Assembly (NCBI GenBank): GCA_024679065.1
Contig: JAGIQG010000016.1
Coordinates: forward strand, 31,000,001 to 31,064,000
Direction of reading: 5' to 3'
Length of the DNA: 64,000 nucleotides
DNA from: Sphyrna mokarran
Taxonomy: Eukaryota
Within the stretch, counting starts at the first letter, position 1. The number at the start of each line of letters is the position of its first letter. A program made the position numbers and the translations under genes. Of this stretch, positions 1 to 27,524 are shown one piece after another. The notes beneath the pieces were generated by a model, which did not search any database, was not told the DNA's origin, and saw nothing but the letters and a program-made list of their open reading frames with translations.

Positions 1-1496
1 ACAGCTGGCAAGGAGCACAGAGCACCTGTGATAATCACTCTGCACGCCGACTGATTTTCAGACAAATGAAATGTCAAGCAGGATCAAAATGTTGCAGCGT
101 TCTGAAATGCTGAGACAATCACAAAATATCAGCAACTGGCCTTGAGCAGTTTCAGTCATATCCTCAATCTGCAGTTAAATGAAGAGTCTGACTTTAAATT
201 TAATCTCCAGTTAGAGAGAAGACATGACTCCTGTTCGATCCTTAAAACTTGTTGTCAAGGTAGATTTTGGACCCTTCTCCACCAACTCTCCCATCACTTG
301 CCCTCCACCTCACAGACGCCCATTCTGCTCACTTTGCTCTCTTCGTTCTGTTTTCTGTGACATTCCTGCTATTTTTAGCGCAAGTGTCTGTTTAATGTTT
401 GCCTTTGTTCTACTCAATTGCAATAGTAGGCAAATGAAATGGAAAGGAGCCTTTTGGATTTTGTGCTGATGTTTTAATTAACATTTAAACCATTTTAACT
501 GGGCTGTTTTTGTAACGCTGGAATTCATTAAGTGGCAATAAAATGAGCTGAAAAGAAATACTGAATGATGGAGACAATAAAGGACTGCTCACGTTGAAGC
601 TGTATGCATCTGAATGAGAAATATTAATCCATCTTCTATCTTTCATTGATAGTCCTGCTGTACAGTTTGAGTATTGTCACTAATGTCAATTTGCCATGAA
701 AATTATTCTAGAATGTTACTTGGTCAATCTTTTTTTAAAATCTTGCATTGTATCAATTTTATTCACAAAATGACGTATGCTCACACAATTTAATTAGTTA
801 AATAAATGTAAATAAATAGAAGTTTAAGTCAATACTGTTTGGACTGTCAGATCTATATACTGTCTGCTTTTATGACACTGATGTGGTTAGAGATCTTTGC
901 CTACATTATGCTTCAGGAGTTCTGGGGCAAGCTTGGTCACTGGGCCAAGAGACAGTAGAGTAGGAGGCAAGCAATGAGAAGTAGGAGCCCCCCACCTTGA
1001 GCAATATATCCATTTCTGCTACCCTTTCTCCAGTTTGCCTCTTATGATCACCCACATGTCATTGCACTTTGCTACACTTCAGTGGGGCTTTGGCTGGACA
1101 AAGTTTACCTCCATCATGTTTGAACTCACAGAATGAATGTGCAGGCTATTGGTGTGTATTCAGCATGCCCTTGGTTGCCTACTTGATCTTATGCTCCACC
1201 TAGGCGGATAGGTTTTTGCATAAAAGTAGATATCAGCATAAACTCCTGAGACTTCTTAGGGTAGTTTGCCATGATGCATGTGGGAGTTTGTGTTTCAAGA
1301 ATTAAACCTTCATTCCCACTTGTTTCTCAACTGAAACTCTTATAAGAGCCTCTGTACATGTAGAAGTTTCAATTCTGCTCATTTTAAGAACATAAAAACA
1401 TAAGAAATAGGAGCAGGAGTATGCCATCTAGCCCTTTGAACCTGCCCCACCATTCAATAAGATCATGGCTGATCTGAGGTGAATCAGTTCCACTTT

Positions 1497-2378
1497 ACGA
1501 GGAGAGGTTAGGCAAATTGGGACTGTTTTCCTTAGAAAGACGTAGACTTAGAGGACATCTAATAGAGGTGTACAAGATCATGAGGGGTATAGATAGAGTA
1601 AACTGGGTTAAGCTTTTTCCTAGGATGGACTCAAATAGCATGAGGGATCACAGGCTTAGGGTGAGGGGGGTAAGGTATAATTTGGATGCTAGAGGGAGTT
1701 TTTTCACACAGAGGGTGGTGGGGTATGGAATGCGCTGCCAAGTAAAGTGGTGGAGGCAGGTACTCTGGAGTTATTTAAGAAATACTTAGATGGGCACATG
1801 AACAGAATGGGAATGGAGGGGTATAGAAAACTGATTTAAAATAGGGATCATGAGCCTTGGGAGTCCCTGGGAAGTGTGTAAATAGATGATGATATTGATG
1901 TACTTGTTTTTATCCTACAGGTGCTTTGGTCCACCTTGTTGTCTAACGAGGGGCATACACGCGATGGGTCGTGAGAGGGCTGCTCTTGGATTTTTTTTCA
2001 AGAGTATCCTAGTGCTTCACGTCGTTAGTGTACGCTTGACCTGGACCATTTGATGGGCAACACGACAGCTCAGTGACTATCGCTGTGCTGTGCAGATACA
2101 TGGATTTGGGCCTGTGTCTGTGAGAGTTTGCACATTCTCCCTGTGCTTGCATGGATTTTCTCTGGGTGGTCCGGTTTCCTCCCACACCCCAAAGATGTGT
2201 TCTTAGGCTAATTGGCAAAACAAATTCTCCCTAAATTGTCTCAAATTTGATTTTTAATCCATAGATCTATAAACATAGACAGGGATCACGGGTAGAGGTG
2301 GGAACATTGGGGTGGCGGCGCGGGCTCGTTGAGCCAAAGGGCCTGTTTCCCATGCTGTTTTGTTCTTTGTTCTTTGTT
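1497..2378 (+). mobile_element. Younger 5'-truncated CR1 LINE with an extended, chimeric 3' region
   Basis: ORF 1517..1789 reads GLFSLERRRLRGHLIEVYKIMRGIDRV...FFTQRVV. The element ends in 'gggcctgtttcccatgctgt' plus a (TTCTTTG)n tail and contains a V-SINE-like core at about 2055-2235. Confidence 0.85.
1918..2052 (+). ncRNA. Candidate structured RNA element (three-way junction) of unknown class
   Basis: Nested stems read from the sequence: 1927-1933/2042-2048, 1943-1949/2022-2028, 1950-1956/2012-2018, 1960-1964/1969-1973 and 1976-1990/1997-2010, with 7 G-U pairs in the + sense. Confidence 0.5.
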
Positions 2379-25462: not shown

Positions 25463-26151
25463 AAGGAACAATTCTCCCTAAAGTGCTGAGTTCACAGGAA
25501 AACTGTTCTAAATCCCAATTGTTCAGTAGTTCAGCTTCTCACCTGACTCTCCCCACTGTGTGCACTGAAGATGCCCCAGTCGTGAATATCATTAAAAACT
25601 TGAGGGCGGGACCTATTCGCACTGGAGTTTGACCGTTCTGGAACTCTGCGCATGCGCAGATGCCCGATGCAGTGCCAAGATGTCCACTGAACATGGGCAC
25701 TTTGCCCCTTGGACTGTGCCAGGGGCACAGGCTGGCACTGCCAAGGTGCCCATGCCCAGGGGTATCTGTCCCCACTGCCCAATCCCCTGCGAGGCCTTGA
25801 TTGCACCCACCCCCCCCCCTCCCCACTTCATTCTGGTGGGATCTCCCGCTAGCTCCTTGAAAGTGGGAATCTAGTCTGAACCCTATTAAAATGAAATATT
25901 CCTGGCGGGGTGGAGATTCAATTGGGACCTGAAAGTTCCAATAATTAACAAATCTATATATTTAAAATAGATTTCAAACAGATTTAAATGACTTACCTGC
26001 CTTCCCGCTGATTTCCAGCATGATCTGACCGATGACTGTTCACCAGCTCTGGGAGATGTGCATTCGCAAATCCCCGTTCAATGCCGCAGACGCGCATCTC
26101 CTGGCCGGACCCACCAGAAAAGTGGGGTGCTGCAATGGGAGAATCACAGCC
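25463..26151. mobile_element. Non-autonomous Harbinger-like element
   Basis: Imperfect TIRs 'ggaacaattctccc'...'gggagaatcacagcc'; internal homology to the 17561 and 49764 copies. Confidence 0.65.
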
Positions 26152-27524
26152 GTGATTTCTTTGTGTGATTTGTGAATAATTCACCTGAATATAATTCATA
26201 AAATGCTTGTAATGTGTAAAGTGTTGTGAAGTTCATAATGCATACAAATGAGTGAAATAATCAAAGAGGGTCACTGGAAGTTCATCACTCATCCGGTGAC
26301 TGGATCAGCCATTCTACAATGGAGTTTCGCCATAAGATCTGCATCATTGTCTCGGCTTTTCCTTTTAAACCTTCTCCATGTCAGTGTTTACATCTTCAGT
26401 TTCAGGAGTGGGCATGCAGGGGTGGGAGTAAATGTAACCAAATTTCTCAGTTGGTTTTCTCCTTCAAGAATGAAATCAATTAGCTTGAAGGCATCGATGA
26501 TGAAAAGATACACTCTGATAAAAAAGCCTCAGGGGAGAGAAGAACCCATTACTGTGCAAAGCATTCCTGATGCTCCGCTTGGTCAACCTCCCGCCTGTTC
26601 CAGAAAGTGCTTTCATTGATCTGGATAGCTACTTAAATTAGCACTTTGTCCTGGGATTGAAAAGAATCTCCTCTTCACTTCAGTTTCATCATGCCCTCTC
26701 ATTGTCTTCCTTGACTTTTGAAAGTCACAGAATGTCATTTTTTTACTGTGACTCATGCTTTAACTGAAAAACATATTTATTAAACAGAAAATGACTAGAC
26801 AAATAATAGCTGTACCAGATTGTAGTTTCTATTTTAAGGATATTTTTGGGAAAAGAAGAATAAAAACAATTGTTGCAATTGGTGTGCAAGATTATTGACT
26901 CCTGGGTCTGTGGTCAATGGTGAACGAAAGGCCAAGTAAATAGGCATCCTCTTAACCAATTAGATTAAAGAATTGTTCATGGAGTTTGAACCAGAAATCT
27001 AAGTTGGAATATTTCACCACTTATCAATTCAGATACAGAAAATGAAGAAAAGAGAGGCAGAGAAAAATTGGATTAAAAGAGATTTAAAAAAGACAGGACT
27101 TGTCAAATATGTTATGTACTTTAATTTAAAAGATCTCCAACAATCATTTCATGTCAAATGAGGCTCTATACTTGTTAAAATTAATTTTTAGTGCCAGAGA
27201 GGTTATTTGCCAATAATTTAGATTCATCATACCATTAAAAAATGAGTACAATAGAAAAGAGAATTTTTTTTGGTGGTGAATTTAGTTCGTGTATATCAGG
27301 TAGGTATAGCAAATTTACATCTTTCTATGTATTTCAGAGGTGAGCCTCTAGACAAGACATCATTGTTGCATAGTTTTTGAAGGAACAAGGCACCTCAATA
27401 AATAGCTTCCCATTTTATACTTTTCACTGTGTATGTGCATTTGCTGAAAGTTACCGTCTGACTACTTTTGAAATAGCGATGTCCCTATCATTTTTGCCAC
27501 AATATTCAATCCAGGATATATTCC

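Follow-up and report, generated by a model that had tools for sequence, protein, structure and literature searches.

The window (the whole stretch of DNA that was analysed, 64,000 nt) carries on its + strand the 3' end of a CR1-type LINE. The following features were assigned to this copy:

1495..1839, + strand: 5'-truncated 3' end of CR1 ORF2 (ending EGYRKLI and a stop), with the stop codon TAA at 1837-1839 and a 1-nt deletion near 1719
1840..1892, + strand: variable spacer 1; 53 nt long in this copy, against 140 nt in family G and 0 in C and D
1893..1920, + strand: acceptor-like pyrimidine tract ending in CAG, kept in 9/9 tabulated subfamily sequences
1914..2057, + strand: structured module, a predicted three-way junction based on folding and subfamily comparison
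1914-1921/2049-2057, + strand: predicted helix P0, pairing CAG/G with the start of the SINE head
1927-1933/2042-2048, + strand: predicted helix P1
1934..1951, + strand: predicted side hairpin P2, 7 bp
1952..2036, + strand: predicted long, irregular, G-U-rich arm (strands 1952-1990/1997-2036), ~33 bp in the majority structure
2055..2121, + strand: degenerate tRNA-like SINE head, aligned to free SINE copies
2122..2215, + strand: conserved SINE core common to the genome's free SINEs, 90-95% identical between subfamilies
2216..2314, + strand: variable spacer 2, 52-155 nt across subfamilies
2315..2378, + strand: CR1 3' tail with (TTTGTTC)n repeats, the family's fixed 3' end

We found that the module lies within the 3' UTR of a young, high-copy CR1 LINE with a full length of ~4.7 kb. 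Copies elsewhere in the genome, as envisaged in a sequence-only reading of the locus, were found: a 22-mer of the module gave 29,288 matches genome-wide (≤2 mismatches) in a pattern search of its own genome, compared with 0 for a control. Absent from that reading were the high-copy repeat itself and the V-SINE-like body that starts at 2055. At 30/30 loci examined, the module was located in the same LINE 3' end, with a common downstream 430 nt and a (TTTGTTC)n terminus; in these loci the 3' end was fixed, 5' truncation was variable and pairwise identity was ~95%. It was also present in 9 of the 12 long candidates fetched, the longest being ~4.7 kb, and the full-length copies L229 and L233 gave Lipase_GDSL_2, Exo_endo_phos and RVT_1 matches above Pfam cut-offs. 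The element is a CR1-type LINE, with a GDSL-esterase ORF1, an ORF2 combining APE and RT, and a fixed 3' end with short tandem repeats. The window copy begins near 1495. It interrupts an older repeat on the opposite strand, the two halves of which adjoin each other in another copy.

Two further observations concern family A. In its 5' UTR (L228, L229, L233) a TATA-like GTATAAAAAG is found ~130-150 nt inside the element. In long copies (L031, L033, L034, L047, L049) the partner match ends 1790-1930 nt upstream of the module, and copy L230 is interrupted at about -1918; this ORF2 break zone is possibly a truncation or insertion hot spot.

The UTR is ~540 nt long and has a single pyrimidine tract. 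Its order is ORF2 stop, spacer, pyrimidine tract with CAG/G, 134-nt module, remodelled V-SINE-like body and CR1 tail. From 2055 on, it could be aligned to the free tRNA-headed SINEs of the genome. We presume these free SINEs to be HE1 and V-SINE, names taken from sequence resemblance with no database match, and the core (2122..2215) is presumed, again from resemblance, to be a V-domain. For the tRNA-like head, folding predicts a rearrangement into two hairpins (z -2.1 to -3.4 in four subfamilies), suggesting that the structured region reaches past the module. A loss of 19-20 nt from the head (2055-2121) occurred after family G (L261, L141, L194).

Every copy of the module examined had LINE context, and a source locus was not found. 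A covariance model detected the module in every one of 12 family-G loci and at a single site in the window; a metagenome pattern scan for it returned 0 matches. Sequence sets labelled organisms D, E and F held low-depth contigs near-identical to the same families, and in the raw RNA of organism E there was 1 element read among 12.8 million records. These contigs look like carry-over and probably do not represent other carriers.

Folding of the module supported a predicted three-way junction, in which P0 and P1 are the closing stems, P2 is a 7-bp side hairpin and the third element is a ~33-bp G-U-rich arm. In agreement with the sequence-only reading, the + strand of the window copy folded better than shuffled controls (-51.7 kcal/mol, z -3.95, with 1/200 shuffles as good). 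The five nested stems described in that reading fared unevenly. The complementary strings are all present and stems 1 and 5 belong to the supported fold, but stems 2-4 had a pair probability of 0.000 and were not protected across subfamilies (10 pairs broken compared with 11.2 expected). As a whole, the noted structure lies 11 kcal/mol above the MFE (-42.8 vs -53.8). Its 7 G-U pairs were counted correctly in the window copy. G-U pairs are favoured on the + strand because the module is 57-63% G+T. ADAR editing was rejected as their source, since in stems A>G stood at 7.6 per 1000 and T>C at 9.0.

The richness in CpG that had drawn attention to the locus is real, with 7 sites (1947, 1960, 1962, 1970, 2020, 2023, 2033) and at least 7 CpGs in only 44 of 12,773 overlapping 135-nt windows, but it is not a conserved trait, the number varying from 4 to 10 per module across subfamilies. 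In the adjacent SINE-like part it ranges from 5 to 11. The only other CpG-rich patches in the window (25536-26200 and 26250-26620) adjoin a broken minus-strand coding-like stretch, and this region looks like a transposon remnant.

Homologues of the module were found in 12 subfamilies, with 71-87% identity across the main lineages. Profile searching yielded 252 hits, of which 222 were full-length and 192 were distinct copies; 190 of these were sorted into 11 subfamilies. The twelfth, G, was built from 15/30 loci. A diverged copy (L020:710-1170, 74% identity) was the lead to further pattern searches, which gave 6,945, 8,369, 8,979 and 633 matches, numbers that overlap and are not family sizes. 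The oldest subfamilies are G, whose age was judged from column support, and F, in which copy divergence is 9%, compared with 1-6% in the others.

The module is carried along as a constant component of the LINE, and its length holds while both spacers shrink. It measures 128-134 nt in the nine tabulated subfamilies, across which spacer 1 goes from 140 to 0 nt and spacer 2 from 155 to 52 nt. The stop-to-AG distance falls from 168 nt in G to 19-21 nt in C and D, with the module intact. The P2 hairpin is dispensable: it is deleted in C3 (outside the nine-subfamily table), shortened in B and eroded in C1/C2, and in the D-type copies L152 and L220 a common 22-nt deletion, independent of the one in C3, removes it whole.

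The majority sequences of the 11 subfamilies folded independently to one architecture, with + strand z-scores of -1.6 to -4.8. The proposal that the fold is one-sided holds for these sequences, which lack a - strand signal (z -1.5 to +0.8), but not for the window stretch itself, where the - strand also gave z -2.84. Family G has the same arm and P2, but the old families are weak against shuffles (z -0.76 for G, -1.59 for F and -1.82 for B). In 14 real copies, 94.2% of cells were paired, compared with 35-42% for slid controls, and two-sided changes were seen in 7 pairs. Two-sided changes lie at 1960/2028, 1966/2020 and 1981/2006. The last of these is a U-U mismatch in E and F, whereas A/B have U-A, D has U-G and C has A-U. 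Most pair-preserving changes were located in the long arm. With RNAalifold, P0 was missed, while P1, the arm and some of P2 were recovered.

We used a minimum spanning tree of the observed subfamilies, with no branch-wise ancestral states, as the frame for selection tests, and the null was obtained by random reassignment of changes with CpG context kept. The 88 fixed differences break 12 majority pairs, compared with 34.9 ± 3.6 expected (0/3000 randomizations), in a test that is partly circular since the structure was derived from the tested sequences. In the non-circular version, where the first sequence of each edge supplies the MFE structure, 26 pairs were broken compared with 35.9 (P 0.006). 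When the five long edges were taken in both directions, P was below 0.05 in 6/10 MFE tests, though the subfamilies share ancestry and are possibly mosaic, which means that edges are not independent. Neither kept pairs (22 vs 21) nor two-sided changes per edge (2 vs 1.2) were in excess.

Private changes in the 190 copies kept 92 pairs and broke 137, while fixed changes kept 22 and broke 12 (Fisher P 0.009). Private changes accumulated at the same rate in loops as in stems, and A>G was not in excess. The A and C modules differ by 42 substitutions, and 39 of their 54/49 MFE pairs are common (z -4.3/-3.2); eight ORF2 control windows, with 17-38 substitutions between the same two subfamilies, gave 0-21 common pairs and z -2.4 to +0.5. 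With G's own fold as the hypothesis, pair-breaking was below the null in 4/4 comparisons, none of them under P 0.05 (0.05-0.18), and the ORF2-end control of this run likewise outdid the MFE null in 3/4 comparisons (related lineages).

As a separate observation, the last 144 nt of ORF2 in C, D and E had a more stable fold than the substitution null. This stretch may be a second structured region in the C, D, E lineage.

We consider it very probable that the fold is under selection. The deficit of broken pairs and the + only folding bear out the earlier suggestion of a lineage-carried, sense-strand RNA structure under selection, not a DNA inverted duplication. Inserted copies decay neutrally, so that selection would act on the RNA of source elements, suggesting that the module serves the LINE RNA and not the host. 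No sign of a host function of the module was observed.

What is new here is the corrected fold, together with selection tests for a selected RNA structure in a CR1 3' UTR with no Rfam match. Our literature search, whose '3 UTR' wording may miss printed forms, found no description of the module. In LINE 3' UTRs, most of what is understood concerns the terminal hairpin. Here a single genome offers 12 dated subfamilies through which the history of the motif can be followed, with natural P2 deletions and alternative repairs of one mismatch, which offer ready-made variants for probing internal UTR structure, and the adjacent SINE core, in retrotransposition.

We tentatively favour, at a little less than an even chance, a stability or RNP role, in which the module would be a protein-bound cis-element keeping the LINE mRNA stable and copy-competent. 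The pyrimidine tract near the ORF2 stop and the long double-stranded arm would recruit RNA-binding proteins, and these would shield the long UTR from decay, by analogy with the PTBP1 sites of the Rous sarcoma virus stability element. The AG would be concealed within P0, and the tract thereby kept from serving as a splice acceptor. For the Rous sarcoma virus element, stop-proximal PTBP1 sites are described as protecting long UTRs (PMC4764554), and the two cases have in common pyrimidine-rich sequence just past the stop codon, a long UTR ahead and retroelement RNA. The viral element is 400 nt long with up to eleven CU-rich clusters, whereas one tract is present here, in a UTR of only ~540 nt, and the likeness shown is one of position.

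As to origin, a V-SINE and the RNA flanking it upstream may have been captured in a single template switch, the fold being tightened later. The body downstream of the module resembles in build the HE1 V-SINE and the CR1-type LINE HER1, both listed for sharks and rays in PMC3747384, namely a tRNA-like head, a conserved core and a CR1 tail. Free SINEs so built are common in the genome. Here, by contrast, the SINE body has become a constant segment inside the UTR of an autonomous LINE, placed after a 134-nt fold that free copies lack. A MITE, MER6/MER6A, carries a V-SINE piece (PMC6887750), and is similar in spreading a V-SINE fragment as another element's cargo; however, it is a DNA transposon and the passages about it mention no RNA fold upstream. 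According to PMC5786205, no sequence similar to conserved SINE bodies had been found as their LINE source. A bolder proposal is that the CR1 lineage built a new multi-domain regulatory RNA from captured junk, consisting of the tract brought close to the stop, the junction that became tighter from one subfamily to the next and the refolded SINE head with its core; to this we give a modest chance, and regard it as rather unlikely. If it is true, these parts together would make up the first RNA stability element borne by a LINE, and would account for the tens of thousands of copies of the lineage.

Five other explanations were weighed against the stability role. The one that survives best, though we think it unlikely, is transport, with the long arm as a localisation signal carrying the LINE RNA to a germ-line insertion site. 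Stem-loop localisation signals occur in Drosophila mRNAs and in retroelements, e.g. the I-factor. The long bulged arm, whose shape is conserved more than its sequence, would suit this, but retention of the pyrimidine tract would be left unexplained.

Next comes a functional acceptor, an improbable reading in which a LINE or host transcript would be spliced onto CAG/G to give a short ORF2-less RNA, with P0 regulating access to the AG. The 3' splice site pointed out in the sequence-only reading is acceptor-like (ttgtttttatcctacag/G at 1920/1921), but there was no sign of its use in the form of spliced integrants, none ending at the AG being found as integrated DNA. The pyrimidine tract and CAG/G are kept in all subfamilies and position -4 varies, as it does in acceptors; however, CAG/G is predicted to pair in P0, which also accounts for the conservation of CAGG. 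Only 6 genome matches had foreign sequence joined ≤4 nt from the AG, among several thousand C-type copies (family A was largely missed by the pattern); the upstream sequences were unrelated, with no common upstream exon in the five of these six displayed. Furthermore, 57 copies had a changed base after the AG, and the module was kept in 30/30 of those examined. The +2 position varies (GT, GC, GA). A donor or recursive-splice reading was also tried and rejected, as +2 may be T, C or A and no copy was found without the module after the AG.

A passenger role, placed third, is also judged improbable; here a captured flank rich in G/U would fold by chance and hitchhike between two needed parts. The weak z-scores of the oldest families, the repeated loss of P2 and an A-C identity of 0.71 in the module, no higher than the 0.72 of the ORF2 end, all fit such a history. 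It is harder to reconcile with the constant module length in the nine tabulated subfamilies, where spacers were deleted or replaced, with the deficit of broken pairs, and with the way in which the module stands out among the eight control windows.

Still more doubtful is an accessory ORF2p/RT recognition element that would let the LINE outcompete SINEs with the same tail. As the main job of the module, RT recognition, which the sequence-only reading had put forward, is unlikely: the most conserved segment is the ordinary CR1 tail, found ~260 nt further downstream. The LINE that carries the module in its 3' UTR is of the stringent type, and in the stringent LINEs UnaL2 and ZfL2 the ORF2p reads tail stem-loops (PMC4176376). 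The module resembles these tails in being a (here predicted) cis-acting RNA structure in a LINE 3' UTR; however, theirs are short terminal hairpins bound by ORF2p, whereas the module is a 144-nt branched internal fold apart from an intact tail. Against an accessory signal, the canonical tail is intact, and free SINE copies with a CR1-like tail occur without the module.

That the module matches no known RNA family, as first proposed, was confirmed with Rfam covariance models (riboswitch, ribozyme, snoRNA, SECIS, tRNA, 5S), which gave no hit overlapping it at E up to 10. The idea of a ribozyme that cleaves itself, or of a processing signal releasing the downstream SINE-like RNA, would suit the position of a structured domain just 5' of the tRNA-like head but is highly improbable, as this Rfam result, the lack of HDV-like matches (0 P1/P3/L3 nested pseudoknots in 11 sequences, using a simple descriptor with no positive control), the lack of both hammerhead core motifs (CUGANGA and GAAA) in 11/11 subfamily sequences, the fact that cleavage here would part ORF2 from its tail, and the lack of a hot spot of 5' ends as far as +16 among 45 copies (an analysis blind further downstream) give no support to the catalytic role once suggested.

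Y RNA was rejected as well: the local score against the genome's own Y RNA was no better than shuffles in 4/4 subfamilies (P 0.19-0.95), and the module gave no match to Rfam RF00019. The Y RNA gene itself (L081, G000:C771:59330848-59330956) scored 70 bits, above the Rfam cut-off. A family-G pattern match at C771:59324985 lies ~6 kb from this gene, probably by chance.
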